Of a stretch of 64,000 nucleotides of DNA, positions 2,701-38,113 are shown in pieces. The notes beneath the pieces were generated by a model, which ran no database searches, had not been told where the DNA came from, and saw only the letters and a program-made list of their open reading frames with translations. Each line of letters begins with the position of its first letter. The first letter of the stretch is position 1. This DNA is from Escherichia phage vB_EcoM_ECO78, in the sequence record PP526941.1; one strand, 5' to 3'. The translations under genes were made by a program, and so were the position numbers.

Positions 2701-3902
2701 TATTTTGTAATAATGTCAAACTGTTCTTTAAAGCAGAAGCTTGAATCTTGATGTTGATACAAAAATTCATACGCTTTTTCTCGCTCACGGTCATAAAGAG
2801 CTCGGTCAGATGACAGTTCTTTAATACGTTCAAACGTTGATTCCATATCATTTTCATCAAACCAAATGATACCGCTATCATGCGAGGTCAAAGGAGTATT
2901 ATCAACACGGAATTTTAAATTTTCGCCAGTAGATTTCCAAAATACCGGAATTGTTCCACATGCACCAAGCTCGAGATGAGTATATTCTAAAGAACGCTGT
3001 AGATATTTTTTATCCAACTTACTCAACTGATAACCAAATCCGGATTTACTCATACGCTCAAGCATTTCGCTATTTACATAACGGTCAAGAATTTGCGTTG
3101 GCAAATTAGGAGCAATTTTAATTTGGTCTACTTGATGAAGACGATAATACTCATATGGAATTCCTTTTTCTTTAATAGGAATGAACGCTGGAGAACGCTC
3201 CAGACCTTCCATAATAGTACTTAGTCCTGCAGGTTTAAGATGTTTTTCATGAAAATCAAACATCTGATAAAAACCTTTCCATGTAGTCGTACGACCAATC
3301 CAACGGTTGATATTCATGTTAATTTCAGAAACATCTTTCCAGTAGGTTGACCGAACCTTCGCAATATCCATAGGAGGCTGAAAGTTATATACTGTCGGTG
3401 CTTCTTCAATATCATCAAACAAAGAAACTGTTTCAGGATACCACTCTTTCATCAGAACTTTATTAAAATCACCATTATCAGAATGGCTAAAAATAACATC
3501 AGCTCGACGAACAGTTTCTTCTAATCCCAAATTTCGGCGCAAAGAAAGAGAAGAATGGTCATGTTGATAAACTACAACACGAACTGAAGGTTTAATGTTA
3601 TCAATAATTTTTTTATAGTTATTAATAGTGTCTTCTTCAACTGAAGTAGCAGGAACTGAATTGATAATTAGAATATCACAATCATTTACCAGCTTAAGTG
3701 TTTTATCGTATTCTTTTGCCAATAAAACCGGAATTGAAAATGATTTATAATCATGCGCGCAATTACGAGTAAATGATTTATCTTTAGCATAAACCAAAGT
3801 TACTTCATGACCATTTTTAATAAACCAATCACGTTGCTCAAGAGAAAATTTAGTTACACCGCAACCTTCAAGACCTCGAGCCATAAAAATACATACTTTC
3901 AT
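2700..3902 (-). CDS. a-gt: DNA alpha-glucosyltransferase (HMC alpha-glucosyl transferase)
   Basis: 400 aa, same length and near-identical N-terminus (M.ICIFMARGLEGCGVTKFSLEQRDWF) to T4 a-gt by recall; position between 47 and 55. Confidence 0.85.
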   Translation of the reverse strand: MKVCIFMARGLEGCGVTKFSLEQRDWFIKNGHEVTLVYAKDKSFTRNCAHDYKSFSIPVLLAKEYDKTLKLVNDCDILIINSVPATSVEEDTINNYKKIIDNIKPSVRVVVYQHDHSSLSLRRNLGLEETVRRADVIFSHSDNGDFNKVLMKEWYPETVSLFDDIEEAPTVYNFQPPMDIAKVRSTYWKDVSEINMNINRWIGRTTTWKGFYQMFDFHEKHLKPAGLSTIMEGLERSPAFIPIKEKGIPYEYYRLHQVDQIKIAPNLPTQILDRYVNSEMLERMSKSGFGYQLSKLDKKYLQRSLEYTHLELGACGTIPVFWKSTGENLKFRVDNTPLTSHDSGIIWFDENDMESTFERIKELSSDRALYDREREKAYEFLYQHQDSSFCFKEQFDIITK

Positions 3903-27500: not shown

Positions 27501-27830
27501 TCAATTAGAAAATAAATTTATCCAAGATTGTTCTTTAATTAAAAATGGCTCAGAATCATATGCCATTAAACTCTGGGTAATTAATCCTTTAAAAGGTCCA
27601 TCAATAAACTCCATTGTAAAATATGGAATTTTATTCATTAGCCGTGCATTAGGAGCAGTGCACAAAACTCTGCATCCTTTGAATACGCCTTTTTGTAATT
27701 TGTATTGCTTGGGATAAAATTCGCTCAAAATATTATTATTCGCTAAAATTTCAAAATGATTCACCAATTTATTTTTAATAGTTTTTGGCGAAAAATAAAG
27801 ATATTCGAAAAGCTGAGTGTCTGTCATCAT
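27501..27830 (-). CDS. Hypothetical protein (109 aa)
   Basis: ATG overlapping upstream stop (ATGA). Confidence 0.5.
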
Positions 27831-28366
27831 TGCATTCCGATTACGAAAAACTGTGGACGAGTAATACCACCAATACAACAGTTAATATTACAGCAGTGGT
27901 GTACAGTGTCAATATGGACACTATAAATCTTATCCATATCAGGAGATTTGACAGGCTCATCAATTATATACAAAATTCGCGAAAGCGATAAACCTCTGAA
28001 CTTGCTTCCTTTATTACCTATAAAACTGCGCACAGAATCAGTAAATAAACGAAAACGTATATCATCATTAGAATAACGCGAAAATTCCTTTTTAATGTTA
28101 TTTGCAGAAATTTTAGCGTAAGCTGAAGTATTAGAAAGAACAATAACTGTTCCGCCATCATACAGCCAATTAGCAGCAAAGTTAGTCACAGCAATTGATT
28201 TACCGGATTGACGTCCACCATCTAGTCGAAGTGTGCAATACTGTTTAAGTAAGTCTTCAAATGGCGGGATATATTCGTTTTTACAAATTTCTTCTACTCT
28301 AGCATCAGAATGGTGTGTAAAAGCATTCATCAGGGATAGATAAGGACCAGTTAAAAATGTTCTCAT
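27827..28366 (-). CDS. P-loop protein (179 aa), unknown function
   Basis: Walker A LDGGRQSGKS; C-terminal Cys/His cluster HHCCNINCC. Confidence 0.6.
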   Translation of the reverse strand: MRTFLTGPYLSLMNAFTHHSDARVEEICKNEYIPPFEDLLKQYCTLRLDGGRQSGKSIAVTNFAANWLYDGGTVIVLSNTSAYAKISANNIKKEFSRYSNDDIRFRLFTDSVRSFIGNKGSKFRGLSLSRILYIIDEPVKSPDMDKIYSVHIDTVHHCCNINCCIGGITRPQFFVIGMQ

Positions 28367-28518
28367 TTCTTCTCTCTAAGTTTGGGCCATTCCGTGGCAC
28401 ATGAATTGTCCATTTCTGTATTTACCCATTACCGCGCTTGGGCTCGACCTTATTACAGGTTGGCGGGAATCCCTCATAGAATCATGAGGTCCAGCTTGTT
28501 CCCATATTTCTTATTTGC

Positions 28519-28992
28519 TTATTTGAATGATTTGACGTACTGAATAGAGCCTTTACTATTCACGAAAGCGATTTTACCATTTTTATTATACATGGTAGCA
28601 GTACGCTGATAGCCATAAGTTTGTTTACCAGATTGATAACCAACTAATGCGAAATTATCTTCACCCATTTTATTCTGTTTAGCGCGAATACGTTCATGAC
28701 CGTGTGCCATAAGAACCTTAGCATCACCAGTTGAAATTGATCTACGAGTTTTTTCATCTTCAACTGTATTAACAAAGTCGTCAAATGAATCAAATTTAGC
28801 ATGGGATTTATTATACAGTTTTCCATCTACTGCATAATTATATCCCTGTACATCCATCTCAACTTCTGTACCATCATCCAATACAGCAGTGATTTTTTGA
28901 CCTTTTTTAAATTTCAAAAGATCAGTAAAAGATTCAGCAATAATTTGAGAATTAATAGCTGCTTCAGTGATAAATTCTTGATATGTTTTCAT
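28519..28992 (-). CDS. Internal-protein-like (capsid targeting sequence) protein, 157 aa
   Basis: N-terminal CTS MKTYQEFITEA typical of T4 internal proteins; SD AAGGAAA. Confidence 0.65.
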   Translation of the reverse strand: MKTYQEFITEAAINSQIIAESFTDLLKFKKGQKITAVLDDGTEVEMDVQGYNYAVDGKLYNKSHAKFDSFDDFVNTVEDEKTRRSISTGDAKVLMAHGHERIRAKQNKMGEDNFALVGYQSGKQTYGYQRTATMYNKNGKIAFVNSKGSIQYVKSFK

Positions 28993-29001
28993 ATGTTTCC
29001 T

Positions 29002-29418
29002 TTAAATGTAAATATTTTTGCCGTAATACTTGTACCAGTGTGGCTTCATTAAAATTTTTTCATCGAGTCGTTGTTGACTCAATTTAATAGCTGATTTGCA
29101 TGGATTATAATCATTTTTCCATTCTGCTGGAATATCGCTGATGTCAGGAACTTCAGTATCTTTTATACTAAACCCACGTTTTAAGCATTCCGTTATAATG
29201 TCTGATTGACGCTTTCGCAAAAATTCTAACTTATCGTAAAAGAACGTAACATGACCAGAGCCTAAAATAAACTCGGAAGATATTTTAAAATCTTTAACCC
29301 GCTTACCATTTGCCACATGTTTACGAACTATACCAAAAACACGCGGCAATTCACGATACTCAGCCATAAGATGTTGGTCGGTCAGTTCAGAAACAAGTGT
29401 TAAATTGATACGAGTCAT
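29002..29418 (-). CDS. denV: Endonuclease V (pyrimidine dimer DNA glycosylase)
   Basis: 138 aa from ATG with SD GGAGGA ([12 protein letters not shown]...); matches T4 DenV by recall with a few substitutions. Confidence 0.9.
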
Positions 29419-29476: not shown

Positions 29477-30279
<803 letters not shown>

Positions 30280-36025: not shown

Positions 36026-36101
36026 TGGTCGAGGCAGTAGGGATCGAACCTACGACCCAGGACTTAGAAGGTCCTTGCTCTTCCTTCTGAGCTATGCCCC
36101 G
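36026..36101 (-). tRNA. tRNA-Arg (anticodon UCU)
   Basis: 76 nt; cloverleaf by eye: acceptor CGGGGCA/TGCCTCG, anticodon loop CTTCTAA, T-loop GGTTCGATCC, encoded CCA. Confidence 0.8.
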
Positions 36102-36105
36102 TAAT

Positions 36106-36181
36106 TGGGGTGACCGATGGGAGTCGAACCCATGACTACGAGAATCACAATCTCGAGTTCTACCAACTAAACTACGGCCAC
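36106..36181 (-). tRNA. tRNA-His (anticodon GUG)
   Basis: 76 nt; acceptor GTGGCCG/CGGTCAC, anticodon loop TTGTGAT, T-loop GGTTCGACTCC, encoded CCA. Confidence 0.75.
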
Positions 36182-36294
36182 ATTAATACCTACTCCAACA
36201 ATCAAGATGTCTTCACACGAAATTAAGAGAAGAGTGATCAGTTCAACCCTATAATCGCGTCAAGTAGATATTAATGTGACAGTTGTCACAAATT

Positions 36295-36369
36295 TGGCGG
36301 ACGTGATAGGATTCGAACCTATAACCAATCGCTTAACAGGCGATCGCTCTGCCATTGAGCTACACATCC
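36295..36369 (-). tRNA. tRNA-Asn (anticodon GUU)
   Basis: 75 nt; acceptor GGATGTG/CACGTCC, anticodon loop CTGTTAA, T-loop GGTTCGAATCC, encoded CCA. Confidence 0.8.
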
Positions 36370-36373
36370 AAAT

Positions 36374-36460
36374 TGGTGGGGAGTGATGGAGTCGAACCAC
36401 CCGAGTCGCAATGACAATGGATTTACAGTCCACACCGCTACCTCTACGGGATAACTCCCC
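36374..36460 (-). tRNA. tRNA-Tyr (anticodon GUA), long variable arm
   Basis: 87 nt; acceptor GGGGAGT/ACTCCCC, anticodon loop CTGTAAA, T-loop GGTTCGACTCC, encoded CCA. Confidence 0.75.
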
Positions 36461-36473
36461 TTAATTCTTAATT

Positions 36474-36548
36474 TGGTGGCCCTGGGTGGAATTGAACCAC
36501 CATCTGGCGATTATGAGTCGCTTGCTTGAACCTTCCAGCTACAGGGCC
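36474..36548 (-). tRNA. tRNA with anticodon CAU (Ile2-like or Met)
   Basis: 75 nt; anticodon stem-loop GCGACTCATAATCGC resembles tRNA-Ile2 (lysidine type); T-loop GGTTCAATTCC; encoded CCA. Confidence 0.7.
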
Positions 36549-36556
36549 AAATTTTC

Positions 36557-37039
36557 TTATTTTATGTAATATTTATTTAAAAACTTTCTAGCTTGAGTAT
36601 GGCTAACATTTATAGCGTTTGCATAATTTTTAATAAAACCTCGTTCATCCATATTAAAATTTTCTAATATTTTTAATCGTCTAGTTATCTCATCTTGACT
36701 TAAGGTACTTGCATTATTTTTAGAAATTTTTTCTAAGGACTGTGCCGAGTGTTTTCTACCATTAAAATTAAAATTTTTAGATTTTGGAGGAAATCTAGCA
36801 TTTAATCTCGCATCTTTTGTATTTTGATTATTAGTTGCGCAATATATGTTATTTAATGAATATGGTCCTTTATCGCCGAAACGGCACATGCAGTATTCAT
36901 GACCCTTTCTTCCACGCTTATCATAATTTCCCGTCGATTTCCACCAATGCAGCCATTCATCAAAAGTTAAATTCCATTCAATGTTTCTACGTATAGCAGA
37001 ATTCCGCTGAGAAATATATTTTGCATAATCTTCTTTCAT
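36557..37039 (-). CDS. Putative HNH-like homing endonuclease / DNA-binding protein with NUMOD3 motif
   Basis: 160 aa; motif GRKHSAQSLEKISKNNAS (NUMOD3-like), C-terminal HTH-like tail, N-terminal His/Cys/Asn cluster; inserted between tRNA-Ser and the CAU tRNA. Confidence 0.55.
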   Translation of the reverse strand: MKEDYAKYISQRNSAIRRNIEWNLTFDEWLHWWKSTGNYDKRGRKGHEYCMCRFGDKGPYSLNNIYCATNNQNTKDARLNARFPPKSKNFNFNGRKHSAQSLEKISKNNASTLSQDEITRRLKILENFNMDERGFIKNYANAINVSHTQARKFLNKYYIK

Positions 37040-37086
37040 CACAAATTTCTCTACTTATTCAATACACTGAGCTAAATCAGCAAAAC

Positions 37087-37176
37087 TGGCGGAGGCGATA
37101 GGATTTGAACCTATGAGTCGCCGGAGCGACTGCCGGTTTTCAAGACCGGTGCATTAAACCACTCTGCCACGCCTCC
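37087..37176 (-). tRNA. tRNA-Ser (anticodon UGA), long variable arm
   Basis: 90 nt; acceptor GGAGGCG/CGCCTCC, anticodon loop CTTGAAA, T-loop GGTTCAAATCC, encoded CCA. Confidence 0.8.
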
Positions 37177-37178
37177 AG

Positions 37179-37252
37179 TCTCCATACAAGGATTTGAACC
37201 TTGGACCTCCTGATCCCAAATCAGGCGCTCTACCAAACTGAGCTACACGGAG
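37179..37252 (-). tRNA. tRNA-Pro (anticodon UGG)
   Basis: 74 nt; D-arm GCTCAGTTTGGTAGAGC, anticodon loop TTTGGGA, T-loop GGTTCAAATCC; CCA not encoded. Confidence 0.8.
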
Positions 37253-37262
37253 TAAATTAAAT

Positions 37263-37336
<74 letters not shown>

Positions 37337-37341
37337 AAATT

Positions 37342-37428
37342 TGGTGCGAGAAGTGGGACTCGAACCCACAAGGAAATCATTCCGCAGCATTTTAAGTGCT
37401 GTGCCTTTACCAATTTGACCATTCTCGC
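37342..37428 (-). tRNA. tRNA-Leu (anticodon UAA), long variable arm
   Basis: 87 nt; acceptor GCGAGAA/TTCTCGC, anticodon loop CTTAAAA, T-loop GGTTCGAGTCC, encoded CCA. Confidence 0.8.
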
Positions 37429-37429
37429 G

Positions 37430-37502
37430 CTGGGAATAAAGGACTCGAACCTTTGCATCCTGGAATCAAAATCCAGTGCCTTACCAACTTGGCTAATTCC
37501 CA
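37430..37502 (-). tRNA. tRNA-Gln (anticodon UUG)
   Basis: 73 nt; acceptor TGGGAAT/ATTCCCA, anticodon loop TTTTGAT, T-loop GGTTCGAGTCC; CCA not encoded. Confidence 0.8.
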
Positions 37503-37588: not shown

Positions 37589-38113
37589 TTAAAGCAAATT
37601 AAACATTTTAACGGTCGGCAAAACAATTTCTTCTTCTATATAAGAGTATTTAACACTCTCAACTACACGCAAAAAATCATAATCATAATACTCAGAAGCA
37701 TTACCTAAAATATTAATAAGTCCTTCAAGCACTTTATTACCATTCGCAAAGAATAAGTCAAATACACGTTCTTCGTCTTCTTCGGATTTATTACCAAGGT
37801 CAACTTCTATATCAAATACCTTTTTAATGAATTCTGGATAAAGTTGTTCTGAGAACAGTCCTTCAACCAAGTATTCATAAATAAAAAGCGATTGCTCGCT
37901 GAACAAGCCATTACCACAATAGCGTTCAGCTTTAGTACTAGAATGTCTGCTTTTAAACTTCTTTAAAAGATATTGGAATTGTAAGATTTCATGCTCTTCT
38001 ACGCCAAACAATGTTTTGGTTTTATAGTTATCACCGTCATTTTCCCAGGTAGTGACATCAATTACGTAACCCTGCGGAATTGTAGTACCTAAACAAATAT
38101 TCATTTTCACCAC
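37589..38113 (-). CDS. Hypothetical acidic protein (174 aa)
   Basis: ORF upstream of the tRNA cluster. Confidence 0.55.
   Translation of the reverse strand: MVKMNICLGTTIPQGYVIDVTTWENDGDNYKTKTLFGVEEHEILQFQYLLKKFKSRHSSTKAERYCGNGLFSEQSLFIYEYLVEGLFSEQLYPEFIKKVFDIEVDLGNKSEEDEERVFDLFFANGNKVLEGLINILGNASEYYDYDFLRVVESVKYSYIEEEIVLPTVKMFNLL

Follow-up and report, generated by a model that had tools for sequence, protein, structure and literature searches.

A spacer between the internal protein gene Ip4 and the P-loop gene vs.8 of Escherichia phage vB_EcoM_ECO78 probably, on balance, holds a pseudoknotted RNA element of about 120 nucleotides, which lies beside the already known Ip4 and has been absorbed into the vs.8 annotation of phage T4. 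The best reading of the element is that of an uncatalogued family of phage structured RNAs, absent from Rfam. The window referred to throughout is the whole stretch of 64,000 nucleotides that was analysed (record PP526941.1).

The Ip4 gene and the layout around denV

The spacer is bounded by two genes transcribed in the same direction, one of which is preceded by a short open reading frame:

28519..28992, minus strand: Ip4 (ipIV) internal virion protein gene, 157 aa, with matches to PHROG 3155 and Pfam DUF7412
27827..28366, minus strand: vs.8, P-loop protein of 179 aa, matching PHROG 1488 (E = 3e-79, residues 3-179)
28376..28477, minus strand: ORF of 33 codons (MRDSRQ...AQT, ending in TAG), equal to codons 1-33 of the vs.8 annotation in T4

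The product of the first of these, which begins MKTYQEFITEAAINS, matches the PHROG family 'internal virion protein' over residues 1-157 of 157 (E = 1e-101) and DUF7412 over its full length (E = 1e-95). In T4 it is established that capsid-targeting sequences (CTS) follow the rule MKTYQEFI-x-E/A (the slash marking the protease site), and that the head protease cuts sites of the type I-T-E/A. The Ip4 N-terminus reads MKTYQEFITE/AAINS, which agrees with this pattern of CTS and protease site, and to judge by these residues it looks like a capsid-targeting sequence. A sequence-only reading of this DNA had pointed to the MKTYQEFITEA start and to the place of the ORF downstream of denV (29002-29418; PHROG 1183), and both are as it described, with a gap of 9 nt between the two genes. 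It was also right that T4 has no internal-protein gene after denV, where vs.8 follows directly, ipII and ipIII lie upstream of denV, and Ip4 is absent. The extra CTS-bearing gene that it proposed is real but not novel, being already labelled Ip4 or ipIV in ime09, Kha5h, RB14 and many other T-even phages, and the ORF is by its family matches an ordinary member of the known Ip4 family, with nothing new about it. The stop codon of denV and the RNA element flank the Ip4 cassette, which by comparison with the T4 layout appears to be an insertion between these two.

Composition of the spacer

The spacer (28367-28518, 152 nt) had been described as GC-richer than its surroundings, as bearing hairpins, and as free of ORFs on both strands. 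Its G+C content is indeed 45.4%, as against 35.1 ± 4.6% for 152-nt windows over the whole stretch, of which only 2.3% are equally G+C-rich, and the hairpin can be recognised as helix P1b of the element described below. As for ORFs, long ones are absent, but three short ones touch the spacer, encoding 33 aa (28376-28477, minus strand), 31 aa (28305-28400, minus strand) and 53 aa (28382-28543, plus strand). When folded as a single sequence the spacer does no better than its shuffles (z = -0.5 on the minus strand and -1.3 on the plus strand), and because the single-sequence fold is indistinguishable from shuffles, the evidence for structure is comparison with relatives and not folding energy. There are no terminator-like sites in the spacer and no promoter-like site on the minus strand within 28367-28518. 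An intrinsic terminator or ordinary 3' UTR was rejected as an account of the spacer, since no terminator-like site is present and the core of the element outconserves the flanking coding DNA. Comparison of the interval with T4, which the sequence-only reading had suggested, finds the same sequence there, nearly identical, and the structured RNA that it had raised as one possibility has gained support, as the spacer appears from its relatives to be a member of a conserved structured RNA family with covarying helices and a pseudoknot.

Architecture of the element

The element can be divided into the following parts, all on the minus strand:

28386..28503, minus strand: whole structured RNA element (RNA sense equals the minus strand), from the match to covariance model R1 and near-identity to T4
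28465..28503, minus strand: 5' hairpin domain (P1 and P1b), with compensatory changes across families
28461..28463, minus strand: 5' strand of the S1 pseudoknot, CCA, pairing with UGG at 28426-28428
28447..28460, minus strand: HL hairpin, with ACCU (28457-28460), loop GUAAUA (28451-28456) and AGGU (28447-28450), from RNAalifold and covariation
28433..28446, minus strand: P2 hairpin CGAGCCCAAGCGCG, with a closing C-G pair, a bulged GA, a G-C/C-G stem and a variable loop
28426..28432, minus strand: junction GUAA (28429-28432) and 3' strand of S1, UGG (28426-28428), with a near-invariant GGUAA
28416..28420, minus strand: candidate S2, UACAG, whose complement CUGUA overlaps the HL stem and loop
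28386..28414, minus strand: T-even-specific 3' domain, with an A(U/A)GGA motif (AAUGGA, 28409-28414) and the hairpin GCCA-CGGAA-UGGC (28386-28398)

In the proposed fold the RNA would be read from the minus strand, the direction of the surrounding genes, and a variable 5' hairpin (P1/P1b) would precede a near-invariant core, ACCUGUAAUAAGGU-[P2 hairpin]-GGUAAUGG, which would form HL and P2. The S1 pseudoknot would then join the segment that immediately precedes HL to the one that immediately follows GGUAA, a second pairing, S2, might link the HL loop with the downstream tail, and in T-even phages a 3' hairpin domain would be added.

In P1, GGGAA (28499-28503) pairs with UUCCC (28465-28469), an internal loop CAAGCUGGA (28490-28498) follows, and in P1b CCUCAU (28484-28489) pairs with AUGAGG (28472-28477) around the loop GAUUCU. 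Across families P1 is replaced by AAAGG/CCUUU, AAAGC/GCUUU, GAGUG/CACUC or GGGG/CCCC, and P1b by CCUUAU/AUAAGG at one locus and by U.G variants at two others. Lineage variants of S1 include CCCU/AGGG, CUGGU/GCCAG, ACAC/GUGU, AAGC/GCUU, ACCU/AGGU and GCACU/AGUGC, and GGUAA is unchanged in nearly all copies. A long alternative pairing in Mosig-type copies, GGACCUU/AGGGUUU, shows no covariation where P1 covaries, and it was rejected.

The S2 pairing is a candidate, either as a loop-to-tail pairing or as an alternative conformer. One of its positions is A-U in 32 copies, G.U in three and G-C in one, and variants have been found as CUAUA/UAUGG at one locus, as an 8-bp version at another and as GUAAC/GUUAC in the L150 type; these changes lend S2 moderate support, with the pairing missing from some lineages. 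With S2 missing there and, in the T4 type, sharing nucleotides with the HL stem, the tertiary model is incomplete. The 3' domain is kept across Tequatro-, Mosig-, Jiaoda- and Karamvirus-type copies and is absent from non-T-even families; its helix 7 is 88.6% paired and mostly invariant, and a further helix that had been drawn in this domain (P3, UACG/UGAA) was dropped, being just 50% paired.

Covariation and covariance-model evidence

Among about 90 distinct copies of the element, compensatory changes have been found in P1, HL, P2 and S1. In the MAFFT alignment A2, 87.7% of positions are paired as against 21-42% when the partners are slid; one P1 pair (13-60) is GC in 21 cases, CG in 14 and AU in one, and both sides change in three of the four S1 pairs, where none of 2000 permutations in a swap test reaches the observed score. 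In alignment A5 both partners vary in all five P1 pairs, pairing extends to 94.7% of cells, and none of 500 shuffles reaches the observed score; cell counts are inflated by the close relationship of many copies and by the fitting of A5 to the model. RNAalifold independently predicts P1, HL and P2. The closing pair of HL is A-U in 87 of 92 distinct copies, G-C in four (from three lineages) and G.U in one, with no mismatch, and in the 45 distinct sequences of P2 the inner pair is C-G, U-A or G-C and the next pair C.U, G.U, G-C, C-G or A-U, around a loop that varies freely. G.U pairs are seen solely in the minus-strand sense.

A covariance-model check had been proposed for the spacer. Rfam 15 has no match to the element at E <= 10 (window and rV5) or at E <= 1 (11 loci from all lineages), and in those 11 loci it reports nothing beyond tRNAs, noise and a group I intron located elsewhere. 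Model R1, which was built from non-T4-type copies only, matches 28409-28508 on the minus strand of the window with 55.6 bits (E = 2e-13), and it also matches other families. A search of the window with R1, including the tRNA cluster at 36026-37502, gave no second credible copy; a further match at 37896-37966 on the minus strand (E = 0.03-0.35) lies inside a 174-aa ORF and was put down to chance.

The same changes bear on a reading at the level of DNA, in which the element is a conserved recombination junction or scar that shuffles internal protein (IP) gene cassettes in the manner of a PeSL. Such a junction would account for the insertion of Ip4 exactly between denV and the element, for Klebsiella phage PKO111, in which an ipII-like gene has a copy on either side, the second of them apparently a recombinant of the T4 and Karam types, and for tandem copies on Karamvirus contigs. 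The strand-specific G.U pairs and compensatory changes indicate RNA structure, however, and the spacer has none of the minus-strand promoter-like and terminator-like sites by which a PeSL is defined, the defining PeSL parts being absent for want of both. The insertion scar that had been suggested for this spacer likewise finds no support, since T4, which has no Ip4, carries the same element at the same position relative to vs.8, and since the core is present in unrelated phages without nearby IP genes. This reading is considered very improbable, and recombination at repeated copies is more readily taken as a side effect.

Coding potential and the T4 annotation of vs.8

In T4, the copy of the element that is nearly identical to that of the window is annotated as codons 1-40 of vs.8, so that, under the explanation proposed here, the annotation would have taken the element into vs.8 as a 40-codon N-terminal extension. 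The alternative is that this annotation is correct, the stretch being the true N-terminus of Vs.8, cut by a recent TAG in the window, or else an independent gene for a 33-aa peptide. The T4 RefSeq record does have a 219-aa Vs.8 that starts within the stretch, and the 33 codons of the window are identical to those of T4 and in frame with vs.8, with the TAG as the sole separator. Against this, the frame differs among relatives, as frame 0 is open in T4, frame +1 is open from a different ATG in the ime09 type, and the stretch is closed by a stop in this window, and Mosig-type copies carry stops as well as indels whose lengths are not divisible by three. Two loci have a 40-nt insertion, and between ime09 and the window there are two synonymous and three non-synonymous changes (counted by eye in alignment A1). 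The upstream ATG lies inside the P1b stem with no Shine-Dalgarno sequence, the 33-codon peptide matches no family in PHROG or Pfam, and the same nucleotides are intergenic in rV5-like phages.

The short form of vs.8 is the one that its relatives share. Its ATG (28364-28366) comes after a purine-rich stretch, GAGAGAAG (28369-28376), homologues in other genera begin at the equivalent M(R/K)xFLT, and the PHROG 1488 profile (177 positions) covers the short vs.8 alone, beginning at the short start. The N-terminus annotated in T4 keeps neither its frame nor its amino-acid sequence among homologues, and a 32-nt core of the element is 94-97% identical where vs.8 itself has 65-67% nucleotide and 42-49% amino-acid identity. 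The 33-codon ORF is judged from these comparisons to be no conserved coding sequence, and a coding role for the stretch is hardly credible. T4 serves a very large group of phages as their reference genome, and if codons 1-40 of its vs.8 are really a conserved structured RNA, then both T4 and hundreds of related phages need a corrected annotation.

Distribution and genomic context

The spacer is matched by 1088 phage records, and core-only matches have been found in Vequintavirinae and Phapecoctavirus; the core also occurs in Vibrio phages, besides rV5-like phages, phi92-like phages and others. At most non-T-even loci there are tRNA genes on the same strand within about 1 kb of the core, and the element directly abuts tRNA-Glu at one locus and lies 12 nt after a tRNA at another. 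In T-even phages the element is located between denV or an IP gene and vs.8, some 7.5 kb downstream of the tRNA cluster, and in Jiaodavirus it is an IP gene that follows. The element is not itself recognised as a tRNA, as ARAGORN places 10 tRNAs in the window and none at 28367-28518, and the Rfam tRNA model finds none on the element.

No RNA is annotated at the element in the GenBank records listed, and no description of it was found in open-access literature text, the candidate list of PMC10690425 lying outside this comparison. A blastn search of E. coli genomes gave no match to the element, and one of plasmids gave a single match, in a 137.6-kb record presumed to come from an rV5-like phage. 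Pattern matches in bacterial and archaeal genomes number 19, all in DNA that is GC-rich, seems to be coding and lacks the flanking features, and in a looser pattern scan of viral sequences about 60 of 90 loci are not scored by the model; both sets were discarded as chance. A 9-mer, GUGCGGUAA, is the sole sequence shared between E. coli RNase P RNA and Mosig-type copies, and it is recorded as a lead only.

That one near-invariant core recurs in T-even, rV5-like, phi92-like and Vibrio phages, and lies among tRNA genes outside the T-even group, indicates a function that matters enough for exchange and retention across families, perhaps one linked to translation takeover, counter-defence or the processing of tRNA. 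T4, as the most tractable phage system, would moreover offer a new RNA family for study.

Proposed function and alternative readings

It is tentatively proposed that the element acts as a self-contained folded RNA, released by nucleases and binding a partner, a role for which the chances are put at a little under even. Ordinary tRNA- or mRNA-processing nucleases would free it from polycistronic tRNA or early transcripts, and the freed RNA would bind a conserved partner, which might be a protein or RNA of tRNA metabolism, translation or defence, or else a small ligand. Its action would not be through coding or long antisense pairing. A stand-alone RNA has to reckon with the T-even arrangement, in which a start codon follows the element in every case at a distance of 60-90 nt, and this is fitted equally by a cis-acting leader.

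Such a leader would be a riboswitch-like or protein-binding domain of the 5' UTR that governs translation or stability of the next gene, vs.8 or, in Jiaodavirus, the IP gene. The element is built like an aptamer, its conserved junction core being combined with a pseudoknot and with outer helices that vary, and the T-even start codon is fairly constant at 61-88 nt after GGUAA. Alternative conformers are hinted at by the segment upstream of the core, which can pair 5' (in P1) or 3' (in S1), and by the overlap of HL and S2; moreover, the T-even 3' domain has two A(N)GGA motifs, one of them in a hairpin loop. The difficulty is with the downstream gene, since non-T-even cores precede other hairpins, a sigma-70-like promoter or tRNA genes, with no consistent ORF, and even among T-even phages the next gene varies, being mostly vs.8 and elsewhere an IP gene. 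There is no Rfam riboswitch match and no conserved pairing was found that would sequester a ribosome-binding site, and a leader function is regarded as unlikely.

Another possible role is in RNA processing, where the element would help to cut polycistronic tRNA or early transcripts, either as a self-cleaving ribozyme of a new kind or as a domain recognised by a nuclease. Its fold is compact and pseudoknotted, with about 30 near-invariant nucleotides, and it lies within tRNA arrays that it directly abuts at some loci, an arrangement with a precedent in the HDV-like 'theta' ribozymes, which adjoin phage tRNA genes. Among the ribozyme models of Rfam there is no match, however, at E <= 10 in the window or at E <= 1 in the 11 other loci, and no conserved candidate cleavage dinucleotide was found. 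In a by-eye mapping of the helices onto the HDV topology, the 3' strands of S1 and S2 are linked by GUAAA, by U or by nothing, and most lineages have no cytosine in this linker, so that the catalytic C of HDV-like ribozymes is missing. No consistent fit came from the HDV, pistol or twister topologies, all mapped by eye, and with Rfam negative as well they were discarded. The processing role is considered improbable.

A more speculative proposal sees in the element the first representative of a new class of phage RNAs with a double pseudoknot, be it a ribozyme, an aptamer or a decoy for protein or RNA, that is tied to tRNA biology or anti-defence. In the same joint proposal, which is about one chance in three, the class would have spread among unrelated lytic phages of Gammaproteobacteria and been overlooked in T4 as the start of vs.8.

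Comparison with known systems

The protein-coding part of this locus has close counterparts in the T4 internal proteins IPI, IPII and IPIII and in the Ip4/ipIV family, as the ORF of the window matches the Ip4 family over its full length and shares its CTS-like start. There is no difference between the ORF and this family; T4 itself is without Ip4, and there denV abuts the RNA element.

PeSLs are reportedly mobile regulatory cassettes of T4-type phages. A PeSL consists of a stem-loop plus an early promoter of the sigma-70 type. The likeness to these cassettes lies in being a conserved intergenic element that, in T4-type genomes, borders on variable genes like those for the IPs. The element differs in being longer and pseudoknotted, in being present outside T4-type phages too, and in its lack of a promoter-like site on the minus strand of 28367-28518 and of any terminator-like site.

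Pseudoknotted riboswitch aptamers include preQ1-II, SAM-II and fluoride. With these the element shares an invariant junction held by variable helices and a pseudoknot, as well as its 5'-leader position in T-even phages; an aptamer-like core and covarying helices are present. It differs from them in having no Rfam match and, across families, neither a constant downstream gene nor an expression platform.

The HDV-like theta ribozymes and other self-cleaving ribozymes have in common with the element that they are pseudoknotted, compact, highly conserved and found beside phage tRNA genes. The helix order superficially resembles P1/P2/P3 of HDV, but the element does not conserve a C at the catalytic position, and none of the Rfam models for HDV, twister, pistol and hatchet ribozymes matches it.

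Stable RNAs C and D of T4 ('species 1 and 2') are small non-tRNA RNAs of unknown function that are encoded with the T4 tRNA genes. The element is without detectable similarity to anything in the tRNA-cluster region of the window, because R1 finds no second credible copy there, and what it has in common with these RNAs is a context of phage tRNA genes, as seen for the core in rV5-like, phi92-like, Vibrio and other phages.

Gene layout around denV

The window is a segment of a T4-like (Tequatrovirus) genome, and the 1651 bases around the spacer and its neighbouring ORF show 98.8% identity to the Escherichia phages slur03 and slur14, with 164 phage records covering at least 80% of this query. All genes of this region are carried on the minus strand.

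Features of the region, in transcription order, with the T4 equivalent of the spacer last
29755-30243, minus strand: lysozyme gene e, first in transcription order
29477-29758, minus strand: gene for a 93-aa internal head protein (PHROG 3499), after e
29002-29418, minus strand: denV, after the gene for the 93-aa internal head protein
28519-28992, minus strand: 157-aa ORF (Ip4), after denV
28367-28518, minus strand: spacer of 152 nt, between the 157-aa ORF and vs.8
28386-28414, minus strand: two A(N)GGA motifs (AAUGGA; GGA in the loop of GCCA-CGGAA-UGGC)
27827-28366, minus strand: vs.8, followed by vs.7 and then GrcA-like vs.6
NC_000866 64793-64912 (locus L002 3294-3413): T4 equivalent of 28367-28503, the 40-codon upstream part of vs.8

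The internal head protein gene appears in the ORF list as 29477-29773, where the start is most likely ATG 29758 rather than the listed TTG 29773; it overlaps the end of gene e by 4 nt from the ATG or 19 nt from the TTG. Upstream of denV this phage has one internal protein (IP) gene, as compared with ipII and ipIII in T4.

As the sequence-only reading described, the 157-aa ORF begins MKTYQEFITEA and lies just downstream of denV (the gap is 9 nt), and T4 has no internal-protein gene there, the denV-vs.8 interval of T4 being without any gene. Full-length hits assign the ORF to two families, PHROG 3155 ('internal virion protein', E = 1e-101) and DUF7412 of Pfam (E = 1e-95), and the same gene is labelled Ip4 or ipIV in ime09, Kha5h, RB14 and other T-even phages. 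Judged by these matches, it is an already known, ordinary gene that is absent from T4.

The spacer and the annotated start of vs.8

The spacer is indeed GC-richer than its surroundings (45.4% G+C vs 35.1 +/- 4.6% in the window, where just 2.3% of 152-nt windows reach its value), and it contains a hairpin as proposed, in which CCUCAU (28484-28489) pairs with AUGAGG (28472-28477). The statement that no ORF lies on either strand does not hold as worded, since short ORFs are present, including one of 33 codons at 28376-28477 (minus strand). In the T4 RefSeq record, the spacer stretch makes up codons 1-40 of the 219-aa Vs.8, and the 33-codon ORF of the window is exactly T4 codons 1-33, followed by an in-frame TAG. 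The idea of a cassette-insertion scar fails on the same comparison, as in T4, where Ip4 is missing, the denV stop codon is followed at once by the same sequence.

The reading frame across the spacer varies among relatives. In ime09-type phages a different frame is open, from another ATG; in window-type phages the frame is shut three codons before the MRTFL start is reached; stops and indels of lengths not divisible by three occur in copies of the Mosig, Karam and Jiaodavirus types, and a 40-nt insertion is present within the stretch in two contigs. The vs.8 profile, PHROG 1488, has 177 positions and covers the short protein from residue 3 to residue 179, and the 33-aa peptide matched no protein family in PHROG or Pfam. 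Between the window and other Tevenvirinae genera, the 32-nt core of the element is 94-97% identical, and the first 450 nt of vs.8 show 65-67% nucleotide and 42-49% amino-acid identity; by this measure, the spacer nucleotides are kept better than the adjacent gene. The T4 RefSeq start of vs.8 (219 aa) is probably 40 codons too early, with the conserved protein beginning at MRTFL and the upstream part being the RNA element. In T4, a 9-nt duplication (CUUAUAGAG twice) keeps the vs.8 frame open.

Distribution of the element

A blastn search with the spacer matched 1088 phage records, among which Vequintavirinae (rV5-like) and Phapecoctavirus (phi92-like) phages match only at query positions 52-96 (88-98% identity), in unannotated intergenic DNA. 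About 90 distinct copies came from pattern scans of viral and metagenome contigs whose output was filtered with a covariance model; they include several further phage groups, one corresponding to Vibrio phages. Klebsiella phage PKO111 has two copies (L030 962-1076 and 1501-1599), either side of an ipII-like gene; the second resembles a recombinant whose 5' half is T4-type and whose 3' half is Karam-type.

Outside phages, blastn found no match in E. coli genomes and a single match among plasmids, in a 137.6-kb record taken to be an rV5-like phage genome. The 19 pattern matches from 185,579 bacterial and archaeal genomes were rejected, all being GC-rich, apparently coding and without flanking features.

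Evidence for a conserved RNA structure

Copies were compared by eye and formal tests followed. A plain alignment by MAFFT, covering 36 distinct non-T4-type copies, makes 87.7% of the proposed pairs standard ones, as compared with 21-42% when partners are slid by 1-3 columns, and the observed covariation score was reached by no shuffle. The closing pair of P1, the outer stem of the 5' hairpin, occurs as G-C (21 copies), C-G (14) or A-U (1), while in the pseudoknot S1, which joins the strand 5' of the small hairpin HL to the strand 3' of GGUAA, three of four pairs vary on both sides, CCCU/AGGG becoming CUGGU/GCCAG in Karamvirus. When the 3' windows of S1 were permuted among 56 distinct copies, none of 2000 permutations reached the observed complementarity. 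The nucleotides flanking HL are A/U in 87, G/C in 4 (three lineages) and G/U in 1 of the full set of distinct copies, with no mismatch, and the GC hairpin P2 occurs in 45 sequence variants, with an inner pair of C-G, U-A or G-C and a freely variable loop. Because G.U pairs become A.C mismatches on the opposite strand, the structure belongs to the transcribed strand.

A covariance model built from non-T4-type copies only (R1) matches the window at 28409-28508 (minus strand) with 55.6 bits (E = 2e-13), placing T4 GGGAA/UUCCC on AAAGG/CCUUU; it also recovers rV5-like, phi92-like and other copies, and passed over about 60 pattern-only matches. In the alignment fitted to the model, whose counts for that reason lean toward the structure, both sides of all five P1 pairs vary, paired cells make up 94.7%, and none of 500 shuffles attains the observed score; on this alignment RNAalifold independently predicts P1, HL (ACCU/AGGU) and P2. 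The proposal of a structured RNA is borne out by these results, and the spacer very probably belongs to a conserved family of structured RNAs, as opposed to coding sequence, a scar or plain untranslated sequence.

S2, between the HL loop region and the tail, is a candidate tertiary or alternative pairing with compensatory support in several lineages, one pair going from A-U through G.U to G-C in the plain alignment; in the T4 type it overlaps with the stem of HL, and it is not detectable in every lineage. Two others, a 3'-domain helix (P3) and a long alternative pairing, were discarded after testing. R1 also gave a weak second match at 37896-37966 (minus strand) and L114 1759-1829 (15-18 bits, E = 0.03-0.35), which share GUGGUAAUGG; the former falls within an ORF of 174 aa (37589-38113) immediately upstream of the tRNA cluster and is most likely due to chance.

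Genomic setting and possible role

In rV5-like, phi92-like and most other non-T-even groups, same-strand tRNA genes lie within about 1 kb of the element, which is found between tRNA-Thr and tRNA-Gly in DE16, inside a tRNA array in two contigs (L214 and L221), next to tRNA-Glu in L143 and 12 nt after a tRNA in L135. In rV5 it is followed by more hairpins and a sigma-70-like promoter (TTGACA-17-TAAAAT, by eye), with no ORF. T-even phages carry it some 7.5 kb downstream from their tRNA cluster, with the same direction of transcription, and since no minus-strand promoter-like site and no terminator-like site is present within the window spacer, it is probably transcribed within upstream early or middle transcripts.

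Several features of these surroundings are recorded here in their own right. The tRNA cluster of the window (36026-37502, minus strand) has ten genes (Gln, Leu, Gly, Pro, Ser, Met, Tyr, Asn, His, Arg) and differs from the T4 set of eight (Gln, Leu, Gly, Pro, Ser, Thr, Ile, Arg). In six Phapecoctavirus-like contigs (L028, L031, L033, L041, L044, L106) a long stem, GUGCUCUUAUCGUUGUGA ... UCACAACACACAACAGGUAAGAGCA, encloses the element, and the same stem sequences recur through the phi92-like tRNA region around other inserts, as if they were a repeated scaffold for small RNAs. In Vequintavirinae contigs (L003, L004, L017, L045-L047) another conserved motif, CCCUUAGAGGGCUUGAUAGUGCACCACAC, precedes the element by about 40 nt, and in L045-type contigs it is found downstream too; L045 also has a group I intron (3115-3418; Rfam RF00028, 81 bits) about 3 kb downstream.

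A self-contained folded RNA that would be freed from polycistronic transcripts by ordinary processing and would act by binding to a conserved partner is favoured, tentatively, by the setting within tRNA arrays of several unrelated phage groups, by the absence of any constant downstream gene, and by a junction of near-invariant nucleotides framed by variable helices plus a pseudoknot. Less likely is that the element serves T-even phages as a cis-acting leader; there the next start codon is always 61-88 nt downstream (usually that of vs.8, or an IP gene in Jiaodavirus), and the extra 3' domain with its two A(N)GGA motifs may serve such a role. These two conserved motifs, about 20 nt apart in the T-even-specific domain (28386-28414, minus strand), look like possible CsrA binding sites, and in Mosig-type copies one reads AUACAUGGAUGA. 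Tandem copies occur in Karamvirus-like contigs (L040, L042, L131) and in L198 (795-969), and recombination between repeated copies may account for IP cassettes beside the element, but only as a side effect.

Comparison with known RNAs

The covariance search called for by the sequence-only reading identified no known family: Rfam 15 places none on the element in the window, rV5 or nine other loci from different lineages. ARAGORN calls no tRNA at the element, the GenBank records listed have no RNA annotation there, and no description was found in the open-access literature searched. Of the two parts of the finding, Ip4 was known already; the spacer represents a real RNA family in no catalogue searched, concealed under a protein annotation in T4 and common to unrelated phages, and its function can be tested.

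Rfam RNase P models do not match the element. E. coli rnpB (L136, 185-193) and Mosig-type copies have the 9-mer GUGCGGUAA in common, and the specificity domain of RNase P RNA has several hairpin-GGUAA(G)GG motifs loosely like P2-GGUAAGGGG, which serve as a lead only. A processing or ribozyme role is improbable. The nearest analogues are T4 RNAs C and D, which are stable, HDV-like ribozymes encoded beside phage tRNA genes, riboswitch aptamers with pseudoknots, and PeSL cassettes from T4-type phages; they share context or general architecture with the element, but each differs from it in a defining feature tested.
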